Source: an uncultured Thermoplasmata archaeon
GTDB taxonomy: Archaea > Thermoplasmatota > Thermoplasmata > Halarchaeoplasmatales > Halarchaeoplasmataceae
NCBI GenBank assembly: GCA_964394465.1
Contig: CAYMXS010000007.1
Span: 7,086 to 71,085 of the forward strand
Direction: 5' to 3'
DNA length: 64,000 nucleotides
Part shown: piece by piece, positions 44,826-59,077 of the stretch
How positions within the stretch are numbered: the stretch's first letter is position 1
How the letters are laid out: each line of letters starts with the position of its first letter
The notes under the pieces: model-generated
Told to the model about the DNA's origin: nothing
The model's input: the letters and a program-made list of their open reading frames with translations, nothing else
Databases searched by the model: none
Program-made: the position numbers and the translations under genes

Positions 44826-47800
44826 TTAGTAGTTCAGTTTTATACTCTTCTTCTGGAAGTAGAGTCCTATTCCAATTATGGAAACGACACCTACTAGTAT
44901 CAGCAGATACATCTTAAGGGAGTTCAGCCGGGCATCTTTTTCTCCAGACGTCAAGATATCGAGCCCTTCCTCCTCTTCCGTATCCTGTTTTTCAGGCCAT
45001 CTAGAACTGACCGCTTTGTCCTGGTATACCGTGTCCTGTTCATTGGTAGAGACCTGCTCTTCAACCGTAACATCGTCTATATACCATCCTCTGTAGTCGT
45101 TGTCGTAATCGTCTACCGAGTCGAATATGAACTTGACTTGTATGGTTTGACCAGCATAACCGGAGATATCGATCGTTTCTTTCACGAAGTTGTTCTCAGA
45201 GCCAACGTTGTCGTCACTCGTATCTCTGTAGTAGACCTGGTCACCATTCACCGTTACCTTACACCAGTCGTATTCACCTTCGTGATCTTCAGTCTTGAAC
45301 CAGTGTTCGAAGCTCAAAGTAGCTCCTGAGACACCGTTAAGATCTATTGTCGGTGATGTCAATATCCCGGTCGTGTGTGAACCTGTGTCGTAGTTTCCCG
45401 TGGAATCCTGGCCGTACCACATCGCCTTGGAACCGCTGCTGCTGTCTCCGTACTGATCGCTATCTTGCGTTAGATGCCACAGGCCGCTCGTGTTCCATGG
45501 GTTACCATTTTCGAAGTCTTCGTAGAATATTGTATCACTACTGCCGCCTCCATCGACGACCTGTGGGTCCGGTTGACTCACGATCCAGTCTTCAACGGTG
45601 TCTGTATCCTCCGAAGTATCTTCTCTTCTGATGACCTCTCCTGTAGAAGCCGATAGTTCACTCCAAGCATCTTGTTCCCAGCCCACTTCATCGACCGTCT
45701 GACCGTCTGTATCGTACAGTGTGAGTGTATCCCCGCCGTTGTTCAGTGAAAGGGGCAGGTCCCAAGCATCTGGAGTTTTACCATATTCACTCTCGAAGGT
45801 GTCTTTGTCCCTGCAGACAGTAAGATGAGTGCCTCCAGGTATCGAGATAGAGTCGTCGAAGGAGTAACTCGAGGACGAATCGTCCTTTATACTCCATCCC
45901 GAAAGCTCAACTGGATCTGAACCAGGGTTGAACAGCTCGATGTATTCCCCCTCTGAATCTGTACCTTCCACGTCGTAATATACCTCGGAAAGCAGTACTG
46001 TTTCAGAGGAAGGAGCGCTTCCTTCGTCGGCTTTCACACTCACATCGTCCACGTACCACCCTCGGTAGGCGTTATCATAATCGTCAAGGGTATCGAAACA
46101 GAACTTTATATTCACCGTTTGGCCAGCGTACTCTGATATATCTATCGTCTCTTTGACAAAGTTGTTTTCCGATCCGACGTTCTCGTCCGAGGTGTCTCTG
46201 AAGTACACCTTTTCGTCGTTTATCTTCACCTTTACATGGTCATAGCTGTCTTCATGGTCCTCCGTCTTGAACCAGTGCCTGAAGGAAAGTTCAGCTTGAG
46301 AAGCCTGAGTCATATCTATGGACTCGGAGACGAGTTGGCCCTTGGTTCTAGAGCCGGTGTCGTAGTCACCTGTCGAGTCCTGCCCATACCACATCGAGTG
46401 AGATGAACTGTAACTGTCACCGTACTGGTCGGATTCATCCACTCTATGCCACAGTCCGCTTGTGCTCCAGCCTGAAGAACTCTCGAAGTCATCCTCAAAT
46501 ATAGTGGTCATTTCTTCTCCATCTTCGCTTACATCTATCGTTTTAGATACTGTATCCGTGGCTCCATCGTCGTCCTCAACGGACAAAGAAACGGTGTAGG
46601 TACCAGGGGAGCCGTAAGGATGGCTTGGATCCTGCTGACTTGAAGTCGTGCCATCACCGAAGTCCCATGAGTAGGAAGCGATATCACCATCGTCGTCCGT
46701 GGAAGAATCGCTGAACTGTACAGTTTCACCTACGGTTGGACTAGCCGGTGAGAAGCTGAAGGAGGCAGAGGGTGCCGTGTTGCTCTCTCCGTCGGAATCG
46801 GCTTTGACCGTTATATCGTCAACGTACCAGCCCCTATAGGCGTTATCGTAATCGTCCACTGAATCGAATATGAACTTCAGCTCTACCGTCTGTCCTGTAA
46901 GAGCAGAAAGGTCGATGGTTTCCTTCACGAAGCTGTTCTCCGAACCGACGTTTTCATCCTTTGTGTTCCTGTAGTATACACGATTATTGTTCACCTTTAC
47001 TATCACCTTGTCGTACTCCCCTTCATCGCAGTTCTCAGTCTTGAACCAATGCTCGAAGGAAAGTTCAGCTTGAGAAGCCTGAGTCAGATCTATGCATGGA
47101 GAAGTGAGCTGGCCAGTCGTATGCGAACCTGTATCGTAGTTCCCTGTTGAATCCTGCCCATACCACATGGAGTGAGATGAACTGTAACTGTCACCGTACT
47201 GGTCGGATTCATCCACTCTATGCCAGAGTCCGCTGGTGCTCCAGGCTGAATCCCCTTCAAAATCCTCGTCTAATAATGTGTTGAGGTCTCCTCCACTGCC
47301 GCTCACGTCTACTGTTTTAGAGATAGAGTCCGAAGCGCCTTCGTTATCCGTCACGATCAACTCAACCGTGTAGGTTCCAGAAGAGGAGTAAGTGTGATAG
47401 GGACTTTCTTCTGTAGAACTTGAACCGTCTCCGAAGTACCATGAGTAGGAAGCGATGCTTCCGTCACTGTCTGAGGAACTATCGGTGAACTGTATGGCTT
47501 CTCCCTCGGTTGGATCCGCAGGAGTAAAGCTGAAGTCCGCCGTCGGTGCTTCATTCTGCTCCTCATCTTCTCCTATCGTAACGGTGTAATCCTCTGTTTC
47601 ACCGTACTCCTGGTTCGAAGTCGGATCGGTATGATAACCATCGTATTCCTGCATCACTCTCATCCTTGTCTCTCCGTTTGAAGCGTCGCTTGGGACCGTT
47701 ATGTCCTTCGTAACCGTTAATGGCTCACTGTTACCGTTTCCGACCTCTACAACTGTATCATCGCTAAGATCAAAGTTCTGGCCCCAGTCTATGACCGCTG

Positions 47801-50800
47801 TTACATACTCTGAATAACCACCGGTGCTTAGGGTGACAGACAACTCGTAGGATTGGCCGGGTGCACATGTCTCGGACACACTTCCTGTATGATCTGCGTA
47901 TCCTCCATCGTCACCGGAGTCTTTGTTGATCCCGTTGAAGTTTACGTTCGTTATATATTCATCATAACTAGTATCTCCACCTTCAACGGTGCTGTATCCC
48001 TGAGTGTCGGATTGAACCGAGATATCCTGAGTCTTTGAGTCCGTCGCTCCGTCGTCATCGGTTACGGTCAACTCTACCGTATAGGTGCCCGAAGAGGAAT
48101 AAGTGTGAGATGGACTCGCTTCCGTTGAACTTGAACCGTCTCCGAAGTTCCATGAGTAAGAGCTTATGCTACCGTCTAAGTCCTCCGAGGTATCGGTGAA
48201 CTGTATCGTTTCTCCAGAAGTCGGCTCGGTAGGATCATAGCTGAAGTCAGCCGTGGGTACCGTGTTCTCCTCACTGCTCTGGACTGTTATGTTCTTTGTA
48301 GTAGTGTCCGTCGCCCCTTCGTTATCCGTTACGGTCAACTCTACCGTGTAAGTTCCGGATGAGGAATAACTGTGTGCTGGGTCAGCTTGCGTTGAAGTCG
48401 AACTGTCACCGAAGTTCCAGTTCCATGAAACAATATCGTTCTCAGGCGTTGAACCGTCCTGGAATTGAACCGTATCTTCAGTGGTAGGGTTTGAAGGCGT
48501 GTAATCGAAGCTCGCCGTCGGTCCCTCGTCATCTGACCCTGTAGTCGAGAATGAGAAACTGTAATCTTCTCCCATGGTGTTCCCGACCTGGTCGCTTATG
48601 CTTCCTGAAACAGTAACTTGATAATCCGTATCGGACTGTAACCTGTCGTCCTTCATCTGATAGGCGAAACATGTGTCATAGCCGTCCAGATCGTTCCATT
48701 TATCGTTCTCTGGATCATATTGTGACAGATATCCTTTGTCGTAGCTATTGTCCGTCAGGCTCAACCTGTAACGATCTTCCTCGCTACCAGCGTCTTCCAT
48801 GCTGCATCTTATCCCGTACTGGGCTCCAGCGTCCACTTGGATAGGATCTTCAAGGTTCAAGCTTATCCAAGAGGCTTCTTCTGAACCGGTACCGACATCG
48901 GAAGGTTCGATATATTTAGTCATTAAAGCCTGACCTTCTGGTGCCCCATCTATCAATTGAACCTTTAGATCCTCTGGGGGATTTCCTAACTTGAACATAT
49001 TGAGCTTTAAGGAGCTTATCTCACCGCTGGTCTGAGGCTCGAAACCCTGGACGCACACGTATCCCTTGTAACAGGAAGCGGCATAATCTCCATCCTGGTA
49101 GTTCCCGTCGGTGTACAGTGGCACATCCATCTTCGAACTGTTCTGATCCAGTAGGAGGCCATGTCCAACATCGGGAGTTATATCTATAGTAGAACCGTCA
49201 ACGGTCGAAGTGTCTATGTTCTCCGAGAAATCCACCGTTATTCTTTCTGTGTCTATGGGAACGCTCTGTTCGTTGTCGAAGGGCTCGGTAGAAGTAACTT
49301 GAGGCGATTCCGCGTCAACATGAGCTGAATCCGTCTTCAACTGTGAACTCCCGTCTCCAACGTTATCATCTTCGTAGTAAACTGTTATCGTATCGCCGTG
49401 TGATATTATCAAATCATTAACACCCGATTTCGAGATGTCTATAGACCCTGTGAACTTCCCGGGACTATCATCGCTTTCGGAGAGTTGCACCGTTTCGTTT
49501 GAACCCTCTGTATCGCTGTATATATCAACGTTCTGACTACCAGTACCGGCTACATCTGAATCGAATAATTCTATCTGGACGGTATCCTGAGCGGGATAAA
49601 CGTCTTTGTTAAGCGTTATCTCGCCGTCGGAGCCTTCATCACCGGTGAATTCGACTTCTACTGTACTAGGGATCGTGGATGGGACGTCAGGTGAATTCTC
49701 TGATTCGAAGGTCGGCGCCCCGATCTCGTAACCAGAATCGTAATACTCTACATCGAAAGAGGATATGGTGGTCTCACCGGAGCTCTGCCCCATCTCGAGG
49801 TAGAAGTTCGTTTCTCCCTGACCCTCGTTCCAATCGTCTGCGAACTTGGTCATATCTACAGCCATGAAATCTGGATAGGGATGATCTCCGCCGTCGGAAG
49901 AGTATAATGGATCTCTAGATTCGACTGGGTTATTCGATGGACCTATACCCACTTCAGTACTGGCCGTTCTACTACCCGTCTCTGAGAACCCCCACGTGCC
50001 GAGTAGCTTTGGATGTTCCTGCTCTCCCTCGTAATAGGGGTCTATTAAACGATAGGCCGATTTGTATCCCCCTACGATCTCTCCGAAGCAGTCGTATGTC
50101 ATCCAATAGGTACCGTCATCGTTAGGTCCCCAGTAGGAGCCCCAGGAGTTGGCTACCTTGAACGCGCCGGTCTCACCGTCCTGAGATATGGAATCGTTGT
50201 ATCCCACTATAGTGTTCACGTGGTTGGTCTCATTCTCCACGTACTCCTCGCTTGTCATCACGTTATCGTCTCCGAAATAGCCGAACGCATCTTCATACTC
50301 GTTGGCATCCAAAGCGAGATTGACCAGGTGTTCGTCCTGGAGCCATGTTTTGACCACGTCGACTGAAGAAGTGGATTCGAAGTCACCCGTTCTGAACTGA
50401 GGCGCGCATCTCCAGGCGTCCTCATCGCCCCATGCTGTGACGTTGCTGGCATCATATGGCATAGTTTCAAGGTTCGCACAGCCCAGATCATCTAAAACGT
50501 CTGAAAGCGAATATATGTGGGAGCCTCCGTCCTCACCGCCGTTTACCTTGTTGTAGGCCCAGGCCGGGCTCATAAGGTACTCTTCGTTCCCTGTAGAGGC
50601 GTTTAAGCCGTGTGCTTTTGCCTGCAGAAACGTGTTGGAGTAATATACTATACCCCATGCGGCACAGGAACCCTGCTGTCCCTGATTACCTATGGGTGGG
50701 AAATATTTCCTCTCTGTTAGATCCAGATCGCTATCGGAAAGTATCTGGTCTGTAGGCCCCTTCACGTCTTCGACCACTTTCATGTCGTCGGCCATATCTT

Positions 50801-51086
50801 CGTACGTCTCTTCTGATGGGGGTGCGTAACCGGTTCCGTGGCCGTTGATTATCTCGTTGTAGTCCTTTCCAGTTTCTTTAACACCGAGTTCTGCTTTCAT
50901 CCTCTTCATCTCCGAGGCGCTCAGTTCTCTGGAAACGAACGTGATCTTCTCATCCGCTCTGGTTTTCCCTTTATCATTCACACCCAGACCGTGCTCTATA
51001 TCCTTTATCGCTATCGTCAGACCAGCACTGATCAGTAGGACCGCTACGAAAAGTGCCGCCAATCTGTAGTATCTCTTATCTATCAT
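44826..51086 (-). CDS. Giant acidic cell-surface protein (2086 aa): signal peptide, papain-like C1 cysteine peptidase domain, a ~470-aa uncharacterized region, 3 PKD domains alternating with 3 copies of an unassigned ~165-aa jelly-roll-like repeat, a lamin-tail domain, and a C-terminal TM anchor.
   Basis: C1 motifs QGQQGSCAAWG (Cys), HVNTIVGY (His), NSWGSYWG (Asn). PKD signature WNFGDSS...HSYSSSGTYTVELTVTD. Repeat signature GLWHRVDESDQYGDS..MWYGQDSTGNYDTG...HWFKTE...YRGWYVDD. LTD region EVYYDVEGTDSEGEYIELFNPGSDPVELSGWSI. Starts 19 bp after the stop of the upstream 1011-aa gene, so likely co-transcribed with it. Confidence 0.6.
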   Translation of the reverse strand: MIDKRYYRLAALFVAVLLISAGLTIAIKDIEHGLGVNDKGKTRADEKITFVSRELSASEMKRMKAELGVKETGKDYNEIINGHGTGYAPPSEETYEDMADDMKVVEDVKGPTDQILSDSDLDLTERKYFPPIGNQGQQGSCAAWGIVYYSNTFLQAKAHGLNASTGNEEYLMSPAWAYNKVNGGEDGGSHIYSLSDVLDDLGCANLETMPYDASNVTAWGDEDAWRCAPQFRTGDFESTSSVDVVKTWLQDEHLVNLALDANEYEDAFGYFGDDNVMTSEEYVENETNHVNTIVGYNDSISQDGETGAFKVANSWGSYWGPNDDGTYWMTYDCFGEIVGGYKSAYRLIDPYYEGEQEHPKLLGTWGFSETGSRTASTEVGIGPSNNPVESRDPLYSSDGGDHPYPDFMAVDMTKFADDWNEGQGETNFYLEMGQSSGETTISSFDVEYYDSGYEIGAPTFESENSPDVPSTIPSTVEVEFTGDEGSDGEITLNKDVYPAQDTVQIELFDSDVAGTGSQNVDIYSDTEGSNETVQLSESDDSPGKFTGSIDISKSGVNDLIISHGDTITVYYEDDNVGDGSSQLKTDSAHVDAESPQVTSTEPFDNEQSVPIDTERITVDFSENIDTSTVDGSTIDITPDVGHGLLLDQNSSKMDVPLYTDGNYQDGDYAASCYKGYVCVQGFEPQTSGEISSLKLNMFKLGNPPEDLKVQLIDGAPEGQALMTKYIEPSDVGTGSEEASWISLNLEDPIQVDAGAQYGIRCSMEDAGSEEDRYRLSLTDNSYDKGYLSQYDPENDKWNDLDGYDTCFAYQMKDDRLQSDTDYQVTVSGSISDQVGNTMGEDYSFSFSTTGSDDEGPTASFDYTPSNPTTEDTVQFQDGSTPENDIVSWNWNFGDSSTSTQADPAHSYSSSGTYTVELTVTDNEGATDTTTKNITVQSSEENTVPTADFSYDPTEPTSGETIQFTDTSEDLDGSISSYSWNFGDGSSSTEASPSHTYSSSGTYTVELTVTDDDGATDSKTQDISVQSDTQGYSTVEGGDTSYDEYITNVNFNGINKDSGDDGGYADHTGSVSETCAPGQSYELSVTLSTGGYSEYVTAVIDWGQNFDLSDDTVVEVGNGNSEPLTVTKDITVPSDASNGETRMRVMQEYDGYHTDPTSNQEYGETEDYTVTIGEDEEQNEAPTADFSFTPADPTEGEAIQFTDSSSDSDGSIASYSWYFGDGSSSTEESPYHTYSSSGTYTVELIVTDNEGASDSISKTVDVSGSGGDLNTLLDEDFEGDSAWSTSGLWHRVDESDQYGDSYSSSHSMWYGQDSTGNYDTGSHTTGQLTSPCIDLTQASQAELSFEHWFKTENCDEGEYDKVIVKVNNNRVYYRNTKDENVGSENSFVKETIDLSALTGQTVELKFIFDSVDDYDNAYRGWYVDDITVKADSDGESNTAPSASFSFSPASPTVGETVQFSDSSTDDDGDIASYSWDFGDGTTSSQQDPSHPYGSPGTYTVSLSVEDDDGATDTVSKTIDVSEDGEEMTTIFEDDFESSSGWSTSGLWHRVDESDQYGDSYSSSHSMWYGQDSTGDYDTGSRTKGQLVSESIDMTQASQAELSFRHWFKTEDHEDSYDHVKVKINDEKVYFRDTSDENVGSENNFVKETIDISEYAGQTVNIKFCFDTLDDYDNAYRGWYVDDVSVKADEGSAPSSETVLLSEVYYDVEGTDSEGEYIELFNPGSDPVELSGWSIKDDSSSSYSFDDSISIPGGTHLTVCRDKDTFESEYGKTPDAWDLPLSLNNGGDTLTLYDTDGQTVDEVGWEQDAWSELSASTGEVIRREDTSEDTDTVEDWIVSQPDPQVVDGGGSSDTIFYEDFENGNPWNTSGLWHLTQDSDQYGDSSSGSKAMWYGQDSTGNYDTGSHTTGILTSPTIDLNGVSGATLSFEHWFKTEDHEGEYDWCKVTVNGDQVYYRDTSDDNVGSENNFVKETIDISGYAGQTIQVKFIFDSVDDYDNDYRGWYIDDVTVEEQVSTNEQDTVYQDKAVSSRWPEKQDTEEEEGLDILTSGEKDARLNSLKMYLLILVGVVSIIGIGLYFQKKSIKLNY

Positions 51087-51105
51087 CTTCGTTCTCTCCT
51101 TTTAT

Positions 51106-54100
51106 TTATCTCCTTTTTGTTTTGGTCTCATCTCGTTCTTTTTTTCTGCTTCTAAGTGAGTAGACACCTCCGCCTACAAGACAGAAAGATGTGCATACTA
51201 GTAAGAAAATGGTTTTCAGGCCCACTCCGGTCAACATGTTCGGAGCGAGCGAGCTACTCTCTTCGTTCTCTTTCGTTGCTTCTCCTCGCGTTGGAGCGTT
51301 TTCATAGGAAGCGCCACCGAAATCCTCAGCAGCCTCTGAGGTACTTGTGACCTGACCGGCGTCGGCCTTGACCTCTATATCGTCCACGTACCAGCCCCGA
51401 TAACCGTTGTCATAATCGTCTATGGAATCGAAGATGAACTTGATCGTAACCGTTTGACCGGTATAAGAGGACAAGTCTATGGTCTCCTTCACGAAATCAT
51501 CTTCTGAACCAACGTTGTCGTCACTCGTGTCTCTGTAGTAGACCTGTTCTCCGTTGACCGTCACCTTGACCTGGTCGAATTCATCGTCGTAATCTTCGGT
51601 TCTAAACCAGTGTGAGAAGCTCAACTCTGCCTGCGCTGCCTCTAACAGGTCGATAGTCGGAAGAGTAAGAACCCCTCTAGTATGTGAACCGGTATCGTAA
51701 GTTCCCGTGGAATCCTGACCGTACCATATAGCGTTTGATCCATCGTTGGCGTCTCCGTACTGGTCGTTCTCATCCACTGTATGCCATAGACCAGTTGTAC
51801 TGTATCCCGAGGGATCGCCTTCGAAGCCCTGCGTGTATATTGAATTTAGACCGTCATTACCACCGTCATCGTTATCATCATCATCCCCGTCACCTTCTGA
51901 CCCACTGGAAACTTTCACATCGTCTACATACCAACCGCGATAGTCATTGTTGTAATCGTCTATGGAATCGAAGGTGAACTCGATCTCTACCGTTTGACCC
52001 GCATAAGATGAGATATCGATGGTCTCTTCGACGAAGTTGTCTTCTGAGCCAACATCATCGTCTGTCGTGTCTCTGTAATACACCTTCTCTCCGTTCACCG
52101 TGACTTTCACCTTGTCATAGTTACCGTCGTCGTAGTTCTCCGTCTCGTACCAGTGCTGAAAGCTCAACGAAGCCTCAGCAGCAGAGCTCAGGTCTACCGA
52201 TTTGCTCAACGAACCGGTCGTATGTGAACCGGTATCGTAATCTCCTGAGGAATCCTGACCGTACCACATGGCGTTGGTTCCACTGCTGCTGTCTCCGTAC
52301 TGATCGTTTTCTGAAACGAGGTGCCATAATCCGTTGGTCGACCATGCTGATGATCCGTCCTCGAAATCCTCGTCTATCGTACTGGTTTCACCACCATCGT
52401 TTCCGCTGCTCACCGATACATCTCTCGTAGATGTGGATGAAGAACCGTCGTTATCTTCGACGGTCAGTGAAACAGTGTAAGTGCCTTCAGAATCAAAGTC
52501 GTGTGTAGGGTCCTGTTCGTTACTGTTGGTACCGTCGCCGAAGTCCCAGGACCACGAAGTTATAGAGCCATCTGGGTCAGAAGACACGTCGGTGAATTCT
52601 ACATTCAACTCGTTCACTTGATGCTCGAAGGAAGACTCAGGGCCTTCATTCTCGTCGTTTCCGCCTGACGATGTAGAAGTAACCTTCACATCGTCCATAT
52701 GCCAGTTATCCGACCATTCAGGGTCTCCGTCCGTCTGCCTGTACATTACCTTGAAGTCTGAATGGAACGCTTCTGAAGGCAGCTCTACATTCATCTGGAT
52801 GATCTCTCCTGCTGTTCCTCCGCCGGCATACGTTTTTAGGTGATCCCAGTTTCCTTCATTGTCTTTGTACGAAACGACCAGATCTTCTCCCTCGTCTGGA
52901 TTTTCACTGAAACTGTCCTTACCTCTGCGTATCCACGTTTTCAACCTTGCATCTTGAACTCCGTTGATATCTATAGTGGGGGAAACGACACTGGCGGTTC
53001 CACCGCAGGTGTAAAGCGAGTAGGAGCCAGAACCGGTACTCTCCGATCCATAATTCGAAGTGATGCCTGCATGACTTCCGTCGTTAGTGTTGGTAGACCA
53101 GTCGTTCAGTGAACCGTCTTCGAAGTCGTCCTCGAATATCGTCGTCGGGCCACCAATTACTTCTGCGTTCAGTTCGTAAGTCCCGTCGCCGCCGTCCGAA
53201 TGTACCATGATTATGTAAGTTCCGGCTTCCGGGTTATCTATAGTCAAGGATTCGTCTGTATCAGACCAGCCGTCGCTCTTTTTGTCATGGTCCGAAAGGG
53301 TCGGCTCCTCTCCTTTACTCACATAGAGATCGAAATCGGTGAACCACCCTCCGGAACCGTCCAAGTCTAAGGTCAGCTCGTCACGGGCCTGGTCTAACTC
53401 CAACGTGTAATACTGTCTATAATCGTCCTCTTTTAATTCCCCCGAGACTTCGTTCTGCGTGTTCAGTTCATGATAACCGTTATCTCCGTCCTGCATGTGC
53501 AGGAACGTGTACGTCTCGTCGTCACTCAGTTCCCAGTCAGCTCCGAAATTACATGACGAATGATAAGATATCTCGCCGTTACCCAGGTAAAGTGCGTTAT
53601 GCTGTATATGACCGTCTCCATTATGATCGTAAGCTATCACATCACCGACATGTAATTGATCTACACTTGAGACCTCTTCAGCATATCCTTCCTCTAAGAG
53701 AAAATCGACGAAGTTCTGAGCTCCGGGTTCTCCATATGTAGGCGGAACTCTTGAAGGAACGGGGATTCCTCCACCCTTCTGGTTTTCCTCGTCACCGACA
53801 CAGCATGAGATAAAATGCGTACAGTCCCATCCTCCCGAGACTTCCGTGCCTTGGTCCAGTTCTACGTAATCCGTCTGGGTCTCCCAGAAGTACCCATCGC
53901 TGGGTACCACGTCCCAGTACTCGTAGGCGTATTCATAGGCTGATCTACGGTCGTAGAAGGAAGCAGGTTCATCCATGAGTGAATCATCATCTGATGTTTT
54001 ATCCGAGCTGCCCGCTAGTTGTTCATGGCCTTCACCTATAGAGGCGAAACTGACCATGAACGCTGAGAACAGCAGGACCAGCACCACACCTACTCCTACC

Positions 54101-54141
54101 AACTTGACCCCTTTACTATCTTTATCTTCTTTTTTTATCAT
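51106..54141 (-). CDS. Giant surface protein (1011 aa): N-terminal TM, NlpC/P60-superfamily amidase-like (Amidase_6-like) Cys/His domain, PPC (pre-peptidase C-terminal) domain, 3 copies of the ~165-aa repeat (the first divergent), PKD domain, Asp-rich linker, C-terminal TM.
   Basis: Amidase-like SGGWDCTHFISCCV...GDVIAYDHNGDGHIQHNALYLG. PPC region DLYVSKGEEPTL...GTYIIMVHS. Repeats with GLWH..ENDQYGD..WYGQDS.G.YDTG. Confidence 0.55.
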   Translation of the reverse strand: MIKKEDKDSKGVKLVGVGVVLVLLFSAFMVSFASIGEGHEQLAGSSDKTSDDDSLMDEPASFYDRRSAYEYAYEYWDVVPSDGYFWETQTDYVELDQGTEVSGGWDCTHFISCCVGDEENQKGGGIPVPSRVPPTYGEPGAQNFVDFLLEEGYAEEVSSVDQLHVGDVIAYDHNGDGHIQHNALYLGNGEISYHSSCNFGADWELSDDETYTFLHMQDGDNGYHELNTQNEVSGELKEDDYRQYYTLELDQARDELTLDLDGSGGWFTDFDLYVSKGEEPTLSDHDKKSDGWSDTDESLTIDNPEAGTYIIMVHSDGGDGTYELNAEVIGGPTTIFEDDFEDGSLNDWSTNTNDGSHAGITSNYGSESTGSGSYSLYTCGGTASVVSPTIDINGVQDARLKTWIRRGKDSFSENPDEGEDLVVSYKDNEGNWDHLKTYAGGGTAGEIIQMNVELPSEAFHSDFKVMYRQTDGDPEWSDNWHMDDVKVTSTSSGGNDENEGPESSFEHQVNELNVEFTDVSSDPDGSITSWSWDFGDGTNSNEQDPTHDFDSEGTYTVSLTVEDNDGSSSTSTRDVSVSSGNDGGETSTIDEDFEDGSSAWSTNGLWHLVSENDQYGDSSSGTNAMWYGQDSSGDYDTGSHTTGSLSKSVDLSSAAEASLSFQHWYETENYDDGNYDKVKVTVNGEKVYYRDTTDDDVGSEDNFVEETIDISSYAGQTVEIEFTFDSIDDYNNDYRGWYVDDVKVSSGSEGDGDDDDNDDGGNDGLNSIYTQGFEGDPSGYSTTGLWHTVDENDQYGDANDGSNAIWYGQDSTGTYDTGSHTRGVLTLPTIDLLEAAQAELSFSHWFRTEDYDDEFDQVKVTVNGEQVYYRDTSDDNVGSEDDFVKETIDLSSYTGQTVTIKFIFDSIDDYDNGYRGWYVDDIEVKADAGQVTSTSEAAEDFGGASYENAPTRGEATKENEESSSLAPNMLTGVGLKTIFLLVCTSFCLVGGGVYSLRSRKKERDETKTKRR

Positions 54142-54211
54142 CTTTTTCCTCCTGATGAGATAGCTCTTTTCTTCTGTTTCCGGCTACCCCCTGCTTATAT
54201 AAAAAGAGAAT

Positions 54212-54244
54212 CCGCATATATGCAGGAATCTAGGGATTATGCGC
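54212..54244 (-). promoter_or_regulatory. Conserved palindromic element CCGCATATATGC-N12-ATTATGCG, about 70-100 bp upstream of the 1011-aa surface-protein gene; putative promoter (TATA-like ATATAT) or operator.
   Basis: Same element with identical 12-nt spacing at 59046-59077, upstream of the 1551-aa gene. The GCATATATGC core is a perfect palindrome. Confidence 0.45.
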
Positions 54245-54327
54245 ACCCGTCATCGGGACAAAATTTAGAACTCTAGACAAGTGCAAAAAAGGTGTAAAAA
54301 AGAGGGAGTTAACGGGTTTTTATCTAG

Positions 54328-57300
54328 CTATCCTAGAAGGGATGACCTTCCCTTCGTTTTGACCGGATGATCCCTTCCTTCGTTCTTAGAGTCGAGTTCT
54401 GTTCTCGTACCTCTTCTACTCCTAGCGTCCGCAAATTCCTCTTCATCGTCGTCTCTCAGTATTATAGCGCCGAAAACACCGCTTATCGTCACTATCAGGA
54501 GGGACCCGATTATCCCTATGACGGAGACGAACCCAACTGGACTTTCATCCTCTTCTTTCTCATCAATGGACCTCGAATCCCCGCTGTTCCTCAGGTCTTT
54601 ACAGGTCATGCCGTCTTTCAAGGTCGTGAGGACCTCGTTTGACCCGTCTTTATCCTGGTCGAGTTTCATAGTCACTTTCGGATTTCGGTCGTTCCTCAGT
54701 GAACTCCAACTTTTACTCGATAGTGTGTGGATAGAACCTCTGTTGTAGCCTATCTCGCTTACCAGCACTTTGCTCTCTTTACCTTTGGGTTTTACATGTT
54801 TCGCCCCCATGTTATACGTCTGATCGGTAGAGCTCTGGACCGAGACCGTCATGTTGGAATAGATGTTTATAGTCGTCGTCTCACCCTGCTCGGTTTCAAA
54901 ACCGGTCATGTTGACGAAGTCTGCGCCGGACTCGTTGAAGTCTCCCAGGTCCATGGAGAACGTGCCGTCTTCCTGTCCCGTTACCGTAACTGTATAGTTC
55001 CTCTCGTCGTGTGGCAGCTTGAAGCTCTTGTGTTCTCCATACACCGCGCTCGAGTCCGAGATCTCGTTGTCAACGCCGTCTCCACCCAGTGATATCGTGT
55101 TCCCATAGGAATCCTCCACCGTCACGTTCACGGGGCAGTTGATGGACAATCCGAAGTTGTCCAGTATGGCGTCCCATATGATCGAGGCGTCGAAGTGTGA
55201 AAGGAAGTAATCCATCACATCTGGGTAGGAAGTAGGCTCGGAGCACTCGTAGCTCTCCATGAACTCACCGCCGTAGTAGACTCCGCCGGAACTATCGTAG
55301 GTCTGGAACCTCATCCCGGACATCGCCAGTTGGATACCGAAGACCGTAGCACCGAGATCTATGTTGAAGCCTGTGCTCTGCATCTTCTGCGATTTGACCG
55401 AGTAGTATATGGGTAGTTTTCCTTCCGCGACGCCTTCAGCTATACCCTTTATCAGGTTCATGTCCACCTGCCCCTCTTCTGTATTATCTGCGAAGATGTC
55501 TTCCCATCTCTCCTCGTATTGGCTCACTGGAAGGTTGAATGTGATCTTGTAGCCGGACTCACTGGTACTAGAAACCTGCTGAAGCGGTGAAAGGAGGTTG
55601 AAGTATCCGTTGACTATCGGAGTGAGCGTTCCAGAACCATCGACGCTCAACTCCAGATTGACCATCTCTGGGAAGCACTGAGGATCGTCTCCGCCTGAAA
55701 GTATGAAATCAGTCATCGTCTCTAGGTCGCTGAACCTGCTTTTCAGTGTGATCTCGCCCTTACCTTCAAACGAACTTCCGCCCAGGAAGGCGCATTCAGA
55801 TGCAAAGCTTCCGGAGAACCTTGCCTTAGTCGCGAGTGTGACGCTTCCATCGAAGTTGAAGTTCACGTACGCCTTACCTCTGAACATGCCGTTCAAGGCG
55901 GCGTTGAAAAGACTGAAGTCCGCTCCCGAGTCATAGTCCTCTCCATCGTGGTTACCTGAAAGACCTATCTGTGGATCCAATGTAGCGCTCCCACTGGCCT
56001 CGCCGTATACTCCCGCATGTATATTTCCGACCGGGTCTGTATCATCTACATCTGGATAGAGCGAGGACTCCAGCAATCCTATCGCCGCATCCGAGAGCAT
56101 GGAGAGCGGGGGTCCTGAAACGTGCATGCCGTAGAGTGCCAGTTTCGTCGAGATGTATGTCGCGACCAGATCTTTCTCCTCTTCCGTCAGGTCCTGAAAG
56201 CCCATGTATCCACCGAACAGAAGGCCACCCACCAAGGATGATTGAAGTGAAGCCTCAGCAGAACCTATCTGTGCCTTGTATCCCGGCTCTATACCTATGC
56301 CGGCCCATGCCTCTCCGAACAGTGAAGGGTTCCCGAGATTGTCCAGTGATAACATCCCGAAGACGTTGGCTTCGCCGTGCAGTCCATATTCTCCACCGAC
56401 CTGACCGTATATACCCAATTTCGTATTCTTCTTCTGTTCCTTCAGTTCAAATGTGAACGGCTCGGATGTTGTCTCGTATTCGACCTGATTCCCGTCGATA
56501 CTCAACGAATCTACACTGACCGAAAGTTCTTCATCTGATATTTCACTCAGATCCAACCAGATCTCCGCCATGCCGTGGTTGGTTCCTACCTGATGTGTGG
56601 TTACTGGGTTATCTGAGATCACCTGAACGTCCCAGGGTGAAACCGAGTAAGATACGTCCACGTTGTCGACCCCGTTGTTCGCCGTGTTCCTCACCTGAAG
56701 GTAGACTGAACAGTTGTATCCTTTCTTTATGTGGTCTTTCTGGAAGGCTCTAGCCACGTATAACGAGCTGCTTCCTTCATCCGCTTCTATAGAGACATCG
56801 TCTACATACCAACCTCTGTAATCGTTAGCGTTGCCATCTACTGAATCGAAGACGAACTTGACCTGTAATTGTTGACCCGCATATTCAGATATATCTATCG
56901 TTTTCTTTACGAAGTCGTTCTCGGAGCCGACGTTTGGATCCGACGTATCTTTGTAGTAAACCTCTTCGCCGTTTATTATCACCTTGACCTGGTCGTACTC
57001 TCCGTCGTAGCTTTCGGTCTTGAACCAGTGCTGGAAAGTCAGTTGTGCCTCACTCGAAGGAGGAACGTAAACCGAAGGGCTGGTCAAAGCTCCGTTGGTC
57101 CTTTCGCCTGTATTGTAATCTCCACTGCCTGCCTGTCCATACCACATCGATTTAGAACCGCTTTTACTGTCACCGTACTGATCGCTTTCTGAAGTGAGGT
57201 GCCATAGACCGGAACTTGTCCATGAAGAAGCGCCGCCTTCAAAGTCCTCCGAAAGTAGAGATTCCATGCCGTCGTCGGCTTCGTTTATCGTCACTGTTGT

Positions 57301-58983
57301 AGAGTAAGAATCGCTCGCCCCTTCGTCGTCCTGTACGGTCAAAGTGACATCATATGTTCCAGGGGAACCGTATGTGTGTGAAGGGCTCTGTTCTGAGGAA
57401 GTAGCTCCATCTCCGAACTCCCAGGAGTAAGAAGCGATGTTTCCATCGTCGTCGTATGAATCATCCTGGAACTGGACCGTATCTTCCGTTGTAGGGTTCG
57501 AGGGTGTAAAACCGAAGGAAGCGCTGGGAGGGGAGTTCGTTTCACTCTCATCCATATCCGCTTTGATCATAACGTCGTCTATATACCAGCCGCGGTAATC
57601 GTTGTAAGAGCCGTCCATGGAGTCGAACTTGAACTCAAGGTCTATCGTCTGTCCCGCGTGATCAGATATATCTATCGTCTCTTTGACAAAGTTGTTTTCC
57701 GATCCGACGTTCGGGTCTGAAGTGTCCCTATAGTAAACCTGGTCGCCGTTGACTAGAACAGTGATCTGATCGTACTCTCCGTCGTAATTTTCCGTTTCGA
57801 ACCAGTGCTCGAAGGAGAGTTCAGCCTGAGTTGCCCCGTTCAAATCTATAGATGACGAGGCTAAGGAACCGGAGGTCCGTGACCCTGTATCGTAGTCTCC
57901 CGAGGAATCCTGGCCGTACCACATGGAATTCGAACCGCTGCTGCTGTCACCATACTGATCACTCTCGGAAGTAAGGTGCCACAGACCACCGGTACCCCAG
58001 CCTAAAGGCCCCTCTTCAAAGTTGTCGGAGAATACGGTGTTCATATCTCCTTGATCTTGACTTATCGATAGATCTTTAGAATAGGTATCGGTCGAACCGT
58101 CGTTGTCTTCGACCTCTAACGAAACCGTGTAAGTTCCCGCTGAACCGTAGGTATGTGAAGGATCCTGTTCTGAAGAAGTCGAGCCGTCACCGAACTCCCA
58201 TGAACAAGAGACTATGTTTCCATCTGAATCGGACGACTCATCGGTGAATTGAATGGTTTCACCGACTTCAGGACTGCTCGGTGAATATGTGAAGGAGGCC
58301 GAAGGGTTATTTCCGCCGTCGTTCGAATCCGTCTGTACACTCACATCGTCCACGTACCAGCCGCGATGATCGTTTGAATATTTATCTAGTGAATCGAAGA
58401 TGAAGTCGATCTCTATTTCTTGTCCTGCAAAGGAAGAGATATCGATCTCTTCTTCAACAAAGTTGTTTTCCGAGCCGACGTTAGGATCCGAGCAATCCCT
58501 GTAATAAACCTGCTGTCCGTTGACGTTCACTTTCACCTGGTCGTAATCTCCTGAGTAACTCTCGGTTTCGAACCAGTGCTGAAAAGTGAGTTCCGCGTCG
58601 GAAACACCGCTAAGGTCTATCGAAGGTGAGCCCAAAGAACCACCCGTCTGTGAACCAGTGGCGTAATTTCCTGTCGAATCCTCACCGTACCACATCGATT
58701 TAGAACCGCTGTGACTGTCACCGTACTGATCGCCTTCTGACGTGATATGCCAGAGACCGGAAGTACTCCAGCCCGTTCCGCCGTTTTCGAACTCCGTCGA
58801 GTAGACCACGTTTGAGTTTTCTAACTCTTGAGTGTTGGAATCAGCTGTTCTCTCAGGATCATCAGCTTTTACCGACCTTACGAAGCCCGTGAGTCCACTG
58901 GCTAAAAGAAGTATCACCGCAGAGACACAGACTATCTTCAACGCCCTGCTCTTCAAAACCTTTTTAGGTAATCTTTCATTCAT
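54328..58983 (-). CDS. Giant surface protein (1551 aa): signal peptide, 3 copies of the ~165-aa repeat alternating with PKD domains, a ~800-aa non-repetitive G/S-rich beta-rich region, and a C-terminal TM plus charged cytoplasmic tail.
   Basis: Repeats GLWHITSEGDQYGDS...; PKD signatures WEFGDGSTSSEQDPSHTYGSAGTYTVSLEVED; C-terminal TM VGFVSVIGIIGSLLIVTISGVFGAIIL. Confidence 0.55.
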   Translation of the reverse strand: MNERLPKKVLKSRALKIVCVSAVILLLASGLTGFVRSVKADDPERTADSNTQELENSNVVYSTEFENGGTGWSTSGLWHITSEGDQYGDSHSGSKSMWYGEDSTGNYATGSQTGGSLGSPSIDLSGVSDAELTFQHWFETESYSGDYDQVKVNVNGQQVYYRDCSDPNVGSENNFVEEEIDISSFAGQEIEIDFIFDSLDKYSNDHRGWYVDDVSVQTDSNDGGNNPSASFTYSPSSPEVGETIQFTDESSDSDGNIVSCSWEFGDGSTSSEQDPSHTYGSAGTYTVSLEVEDNDGSTDTYSKDLSISQDQGDMNTVFSDNFEEGPLGWGTGGLWHLTSESDQYGDSSSGSNSMWYGQDSSGDYDTGSRTSGSLASSSIDLNGATQAELSFEHWFETENYDGEYDQITVLVNGDQVYYRDTSDPNVGSENNFVKETIDISDHAGQTIDLEFKFDSMDGSYNDYRGWYIDDVMIKADMDESETNSPPSASFGFTPSNPTTEDTVQFQDDSYDDDGNIASYSWEFGDGATSSEQSPSHTYGSPGTYDVTLTVQDDEGASDSYSTTVTINEADDGMESLLSEDFEGGASSWTSSGLWHLTSESDQYGDSKSGSKSMWYGQAGSGDYNTGERTNGALTSPSVYVPPSSEAQLTFQHWFKTESYDGEYDQVKVIINGEEVYYKDTSDPNVGSENDFVKKTIDISEYAGQQLQVKFVFDSVDGNANDYRGWYVDDVSIEADEGSSSLYVARAFQKDHIKKGYNCSVYLQVRNTANNGVDNVDVSYSVSPWDVQVISDNPVTTHQVGTNHGMAEIWLDLSEISDEELSVSVDSLSIDGNQVEYETTSEPFTFELKEQKKNTKLGIYGQVGGEYGLHGEANVFGMLSLDNLGNPSLFGEAWAGIGIEPGYKAQIGSAEASLQSSLVGGLLFGGYMGFQDLTEEEKDLVATYISTKLALYGMHVSGPPLSMLSDAAIGLLESSLYPDVDDTDPVGNIHAGVYGEASGSATLDPQIGLSGNHDGEDYDSGADFSLFNAALNGMFRGKAYVNFNFDGSVTLATKARFSGSFASECAFLGGSSFEGKGEITLKSRFSDLETMTDFILSGGDDPQCFPEMVNLELSVDGSGTLTPIVNGYFNLLSPLQQVSSTSESGYKITFNLPVSQYEERWEDIFADNTEEGQVDMNLIKGIAEGVAEGKLPIYYSVKSQKMQSTGFNIDLGATVFGIQLAMSGMRFQTYDSSGGVYYGGEFMESYECSEPTSYPDVMDYFLSHFDASIIWDAILDNFGLSINCPVNVTVEDSYGNTISLGGDGVDNEISDSSAVYGEHKSFKLPHDERNYTVTVTGQEDGTFSMDLGDFNESGADFVNMTGFETEQGETTTINIYSNMTVSVQSSTDQTYNMGAKHVKPKGKESKVLVSEIGYNRGSIHTLSSKSWSSLRNDRNPKVTMKLDQDKDGSNEVLTTLKDGMTCKDLRNSGDSRSIDEKEEDESPVGFVSVIGIIGSLLIVTISGVFGAIILRDDDEEEFADARSRRGTRTELDSKNEGRDHPVKTKGRSSLLG

Positions 58984-59045
58984 ATTAGCCCCTTCCTTTG
59001 CTTCTTCTTGTGGTAAAAAGGTCCCTATGATTATTTAAAGAGACT

Positions 59046-59077
59046 CCGCATATATGCGAAAAGTTTCTAATTATGCG
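59046..59077 (-). promoter_or_regulatory. Second copy of the CCGCATATATGCG-N12-ATTATGCG element, 63-94 bp upstream of the 1551-aa surface-protein gene.
   Basis: Near-identical to the 54212-54244 element in sequence, spacing and position relative to the start codon. Confidence 0.45.

Follow-up and report, generated by a model that had tools for sequence, protein, structure and literature searches.

Three giant, likely membrane-anchored surface proteins of an uncultured Thermoplasmata archaeon built from PKD and MAM-like modules, two with predicted cysteine hydrolase heads

What kind of proteins are encoded by three giant genes that lie side by side in the genome of an uncultured Thermoplasmata archaeon, and is the repeat from which they are built a new domain? 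The window, that is, the whole stretch of 64,000 nucleotides analysed here, contains on its minus strand (44826-58983) three consecutive ORFs, here called A, B and C, whose lengths and overall extent agree with the original prediction and which together make up 14.2 kb or 22 % of the window (Table 1). The genes are recovered in four independent assemblies and are thus not an assembly artefact; the 90 % clusters of their proteins have just two members each. A Kyte-Doolittle scan finds a single hydrophobic segment at either end of each protein, which supports the earlier view that each has a signal or transmembrane (TM) segment at its start, a TM anchor at its end and a likely exposure at the cell surface; the C-terminal tails are basic. 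The proteins had also been described as acidic, and they are (pI 4.05-4.09, with 17-21 % D+E and about 5 % K+R), although this is not special to them, since the remaining ORFs of the window mostly have a pI of about 4.5-5. The ectodomains are rich in Ser and Thr (about 20 %). Heavy N-glycosylation was considered and rejected, since the sequon density (0-0.39 per 100 residues, with none at all in B) is not raised over that of the other window ORFs (0.29). No PGF-CTERM or archaeosortase signal was found in the three C-termini with the NCBIfam sorting-signal models (E <= 1), which gave one insignificant LPXTG match, nor is a PGF motif visible there by eye. A, B and C are real and very large proteins, likely to be membrane-anchored at the surface, with putative enzyme heads (in A and B) on long stalks of repeated domains.

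Table 1. Features of the locus, with coordinates in the window
Feature	Residues	Coordinates	Strand	Basis
Gene A	2086 aa	44826..51086	-	ORF, Pfam, hydropathy
Gene B	1011 aa	51106..54141	-	ORF, Pfam
Gene C	1551 aa	54328..58983	-	ORF, Pfam, hydropathy
Papain-like C1 peptidase	A 121-322	50121..50726	-	PF00112, 41.8 bits (cut-off 20.7)
Big_5 Ig-like, ~175-aa insertion inside	A 591-851	48534..49316	-	PF13205, 54.5 bits, two stretches
GEVED	A 1094-1170	47577..47807	-	PF20009, 51.7 bits
MAM-like repeat A1	A 1266-1430	46797..47291	-	Pfam single-unit match, repeat alignment
MAM-like repeat A2	A 1524-1687	46026..46517	-	Pfam, repeat alignment
Lamin-tail domain (LTD)	A 1691-1804	45675..46016	-	PF00932, 77.6 bits (cut-off 34.3)
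MAM-like repeat A3	A 1848-2011	45054..45545	-	Pfam single unit, repeat alignment, fold comparison
Amidase_6 (NlpC/P60-type)	B 63-192	53566..53955	-	PF12671, 44.5 bits (cut-off 23.2)
PPC (pre-peptidase C-terminal)	B 242-315	53197..53418	-	PF04151, 45.3 bits
Divergent MAM/CBM-like jelly-roll	B 322-492	52666..53178	-	Reelin_subrepeat-B E 9e-5, CBM_4_9 E 0.005
MAM-like repeat B1	B 584-747	51901..52392	-	Pfam, repeat alignment
MAM-like repeat B2	B 764-927	51361..51852	-	Repeat alignment
MAM-like repeat C1	C 56-219	58327..58818	-	Pfam single-unit match, repeat alignment
MAM-like repeat C2	C 313-476	57556..58047	-	Pfam, repeat alignment
MAM-like repeat C3	C 572-735	56779..57270	-	Repeat alignment
Orphan membrane-proximal region	C 736-1480	54544..56778	-	No family by Pfam
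Promoter-like block before C		59032..59077	-	CGCATAAT, N12, palindrome GCATATATGC(GG), then A/T-rich TATA-like box
Paralogous promoter-like block before B		54198..54243	-	Sequence comparison

The repeat is 164-165 aa long and occurs in eight canonical copies, which share 56 invariant columns and have identities of 55-73 % at the protein level and 60-74 % at the DNA level, far beyond chance. Three copies per protein, alternating with PKD domains, had been proposed; the number holds for A and C, but B has two canonical copies, adjacent to each other, and its third jelly-roll is a remote relative (tblastn E 2e-5; 80 % probability by hhalign). The idea that the repeat is unassigned, and perhaps founds a new family, does not survive a Pfam check on single units, which match PF20773 (InhA-like_MAM) with 41.2, 33.8 and 38.2 bits (E 1.7e-10 to 3e-8) at a gathering threshold of 26.9 bits. 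The whole proteins A, B and C score 81.6, 51.5 and 79.4 bits respectively, and the same assignment is already precomputed for them in a public protein collection. The aligned part spans profile positions of about 54-165 of 191, corresponding to about 100 of the 164 residues per unit, and the N-terminal third of the repeat, with its GLWH, WYG and YDTG motifs, marks a subfamily that PF20773 covers poorly. The NF038128 model (choice-of-anchor J) aligns with repeat positions 7-161 over profile positions 2-162 of 162, with 26.4 bits (E 6.8e-6); since the curated cut-off is 30 bits, formal membership is narrowly missed, and by this alignment the two are likely to be homologous. The canonical MAM model PF00629 matches neither the whole proteins (E <= 0.01) nor single units (E <= 1), and not one cysteine column is conserved among the eight repeats; canonical MAM domains have four conserved cysteines.

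The guess of a jelly-roll fold was a good one: the repeat has the MAM-type beta-sandwich jelly-roll of MAM and CBM domains and is superposable on the MAM-like domain of InhA. When the PDB was searched with one repeat using phmmer nothing significant was found; a profile built from all eight reaches InhA. The family comprises 7096 cluster representatives in many bacterial and archaeal phyla, a figure from an exhaustive search of representatives (a word-indexed search gave 25 short matches and no large relatives), and the SDQYGDS and VYYRDTSD-NVGSEN parts of the repeat signature are limited to about ten cluster representatives of this lineage. The 165-aa repeat represents an already known MAM-like jelly-roll domain of wide distribution, which makes the locus a new but ordinary instance of a known protein type.

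Protein A is organized as signal/TM, pro-region, Peptidase_C1, beta linker domains, Big_5 with an insert, two PKD domains, GEVED, PKD, MAM, PKD, MAM, LTD, MAM and TM. Its head belongs to peptidase family C1 (papain) by its HMM match and by Gln135, Cys141, His289 and Asn313, all four of which align in register with cathepsin L; the intact papain-like triad and the lamin-tail domain were therefore correctly recognized at the outset, and proteolysis is predicted. The insertion in Big_5 (residues 642-817) has a weak likeness to DUF4082 (E 0.007). PKD domains (PF18911/PF00801) are above threshold, and the PKD_4 scores of A, B and C are 276, 65.5 and 138 bits respectively. GEVED, the interrupted Big_5 domain and the orphan region of C are all absent from the original prediction.

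Protein B is organized as signal/TM, Amidase_6, PPC, divergent jelly-roll, PKD, MAM, acidic linker, MAM and TM, and both the NlpC/P60 or Amidase_6-like head and the PPC domain expected in it are found. The head is assigned to Amidase_6, an NlpC/P60-type cysteine hydrolase family, by HMM and by a predicted Cys-His-polar triad (C107/H181/H194) that aligns with the Amidase_6 domain of a paralog, P0029; the NLPC_P60 model itself stays below threshold (18.6 versus 23). A Pfam search found no cell-wall-binding domain (SH3, LysM or PG_binding) in B. A diversity-generating retroelement was considered as the source of a substitution cluster in B and rejected, a template-like DNA repeat not being found. 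Gene B lies 19 nt upstream of gene A, and AGGAG precedes the ATG of A, so A and B are probably co-transcribed. The palindrome and TATA block of Table 1 are common to B, C and the paralog P0026, and a variant precedes the gene of a Metallophos paralog. Scans for sigma-70 promoters and terminators, with models not applicable to archaea, stayed at chance level, and their sole use was to reveal the shared palindrome.

Protein C departs from the proposal that the proteins of the cluster carry hydrolase heads, since no catalytic domain was recognized in it by Pfam. Its order is signal/TM, MAM, PKD, MAM, PKD, MAM, a 745-aa orphan region, TM and a 40-aa, probably cytoplasmic tail. The orphan region, about half of the protein, is explained by no known family: it has no Pfam match, and no homologues were found in a collection of 5.8e9 proteins, among the best 150 domain relatives or in JGI metagenome contigs. 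It is glycine-rich, with a mix of strands and helices predicted, and a single-sequence AF2 model of it (pLDDT 33.5) is unusable.

Two further clusters in the same genome (assembly GCA_905333785.1) have the same stalk modules and other heads, namely GH25+Amidase_6+SH3_3, C25, a metallophosphatase and a phosphate-binding protein. P0029 (C1+GH25+Big_7+Amidase_6+SH3_3+PKDx4+MAMx2), whose C1 head is 49.6 % identical to that of A, adjoins a C25 gingipain-like protein; P0026 is PBP_like_2+MAM/PKD, and another paralog is Metallophos+PKD+MAM+LTD+MAM. The closest relatives outside the genome are in Thermoplasmata MAGs, where giant ORFs combine S8 subtilase, C1, PKD, GEVED and MAM, and by these relatives too the host is most likely one of the Thermoplasmatota; tblastn of the window ORFs against the flanks of these relatives found no synteny. 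The surroundings are chromosomal and of a housekeeping kind rather than those of a plasmid or island. Among the proteins encoded in the window are an M42 aminopeptidase, two TldD/PmbA proteins, GcvT, Lpd, SHMT, acyl-CoA dehydrogenase and ETF; its amino-acid, fatty-acid and peptide catabolism fits growth on peptides, and the same assembly encodes purine synthesis (PurL/PurS).

We think it reasonably probable that A, B and C serve a peptide-degrading archaeon as scavenging hydrolases and adhesins tethered to its surface. They would be type-I-like membrane proteins of an acid-proteome host. A Sec-type hydrophobic segment at the N-terminus would direct their export, and one C-terminal helix, with a basic tail behind it, would anchor them in the membrane. 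The part in between would form a rod composed of 6 to 13 beta-sandwich modules (PKD, InhA-like MAM, LTD, GEVED, Big_5 and PPC). The distal tip would be a papain-like cysteine endopeptidase in A and, in B, a cysteine amidase or peptidase of the NlpC/P60 type (Amidase_6). C would have its three MAM modules distal and its lineage-specific 745-aa module by the membrane, and with no recognizable enzyme its probable role is that of an adhesin or accessory protein. Polymers close to the cell would be cut by the enzymes, and the products would be taken up; the substrates may be protein from detritus or particles and, in the case of B and its paralog, are probably peptides of bacterial peptidoglycan, as the family name and the paralog fusion suggest. 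The MAM-like fold elsewhere makes protein-protein contacts in some proteins and binds glycans in others, and here too the modules may both act as spacers and bind proteins or glycans, in the manner of other MAM and CBM jelly-rolls. The locus is one of at least three genomic clusters that reuse a stalk cassette with different heads, some of them with the promoter palindrome in common.

The same heads could instead be weapons, the amidase of B, the protease of A and the GH25 paralog lysing neighbouring bacteria on contact in antagonism or predation. We regard this as unlikely, although P0029 does fuse a GH25 muramidase, Amidase_6, a bacterial SH3_3 domain and a close relative of the C1 head of A, the triad of B is conserved, and modular peptidoglycan hydrolases are reportedly prominent in Thermoplasmata's phylum, Thermoplasmatota, with haloarchaeal ones being bactericidal (PMC12352652). 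Against it, B has no domain for binding cell walls and so falls outside the class described there, an enzyme tethered to the membrane by its C-terminus has a limited reach, nutrient scavenging is suggested by the heads of the other paralogs (phosphoesterase, phosphate-binding protein, subtilase and C25), and the chromosomal context is a housekeeping one. A more specific version, which we consider decidedly unlikely, has co-regulated, long-stalked, tethered hydrolases (with the palindrome and TATA block in common) of a Thermoplasmatota-like archaeon attacking bacterial cells on contact. The arsenal would comprise a peptidoglycan amidase, a muramidase and cysteine proteases, with the homologue-less region of C as a new effector or assembly module near the membrane and the 'GLWH' MAM-like subfamily as the element that recognizes the target.

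It is very unlikely that the proteins mainly form a protective, highly acidic coat, such as an S-layer-like canopy or glycocalyx, of a halophilic and possibly wall-less archaeon, with heads that are secondary or inactive. Their very large, acidic, Ser/Thr-rich ectodomains and C-terminal TM anchors would suit such a coat, and the MAM domains of RPTPmu and meprin, whose folds were recovered in the fold search, mediate homophilic contacts; but the catalytic residues of A and B are intact, the diversity of heads across the paralogs is typical of exoenzymes, sequons are not enriched, no archaeal surface-layer sorting signal was found in the C-termini, and the 90 % clusters have just two members each. 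The original likening to giant proteins of host interaction or adhesion in halophilic or episymbiotic archaea, taken here as adhesins with which a halophilic episymbiont of DPANN type would contact its host and which would be built from a new unassigned domain family, appears highly improbable. The proteins are indeed giant, acidic, multi-domain and of surface type, PF20773 leaves part of each unit unaligned, and two parts of the signature are confined to this lineage. However, the repeat passes PF20773, aligns end to end with NF038128 just under its cut-off, has the MAM/CBM fold and belongs to a family that spans many phyla of both domains; the nearest relatives are Thermoplasmata and not DPANN, and the catabolism of the window and the purine synthesis of the assembly do not fit a reduced symbiont. 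SPEARE proteins of Nanohaloarchaeota combine serine protease, adhesion and restriction-endonuclease domains in one giant protein, and in A, B and C Pfam found neither a serine protease nor a restriction endonuclease of the SPEARE type.

As scavenging proteins and adhesins, A, B and C add one example of modular surface exoenzymes and adhesins made from PKD and MAM-like modules, an architecture common in uncultured bacteria and archaea that will not surprise a specialist. Of wider import would be the lineage-specific expansion, in which at least three clusters with about nine giant genes join heads of several kinds (protease, peptidoglycan hydrolase, phosphoesterase and binding protein) to a single stalk cassette, and which bears on how peptide-degrading archaea get at polymeric substrates. 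The proteins are also candidates for a question that has only recently been opened, that of archaeal enzymes acting on bacterial cell walls. The coverage that PF20773 gives of this widespread subfamily is only about 60 %, so annotation would gain from an improved model.

Among known systems, the InhA/PrtV-type M6 metallopeptidases (PF20773; PDB 4yu5) define the domain family in which the repeat scores above threshold, and they follow a similar logic, a secreted protease being joined to a MAM-like module; PrtV also has PKD modules. Their M6 catalytic domain is absent from A, B and C, which are membrane-anchored and archaeal and have two or three MAM-like copies rather than the one of InhA. Choice-of-anchor J domains (NF038128) occur in the same setting, large surface proteins with various C-terminal anchors. 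The gingipains RgpA and Kgp, which in Porphyromonas gingivalis carry cleaved-adhesin domains, have a C25 protease and T9SS/LPS anchoring, whereas A has a C1 protease and a predicted TM helix and shows no sign of being processed by proteolysis into adhesin complexes. Animal MAM proteins (meprin, enteropeptidase, RPTPmu/kappa and neuropilin) and reelin subrepeat B are 8-17 % identical to the repeat, which does not match canonical MAM (PF00629) and lacks the four conserved MAM cysteines. Modular archaeal peptidoglycan hydrolases, defined by a catalytic domain and at least one cell-wall-binding domain in one protein, have been reported from about 5 % of archaeal genomes, and haloarchaeal ones kill bacteria (Strock et al., 2025; PMC12352652). 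B resembles them in being archaeal, in its predicted export, in its peptidoglycan-type catalytic domain and in coming from a phylum where such genes are said to be prominent; they are freely secreted, whereas B is apparently membrane-tethered, has a predicted activity and, with no cell-wall-binding domain, lies outside the definition, within which P0029 (GH25+Amidase_6+SH3_3) does fall.

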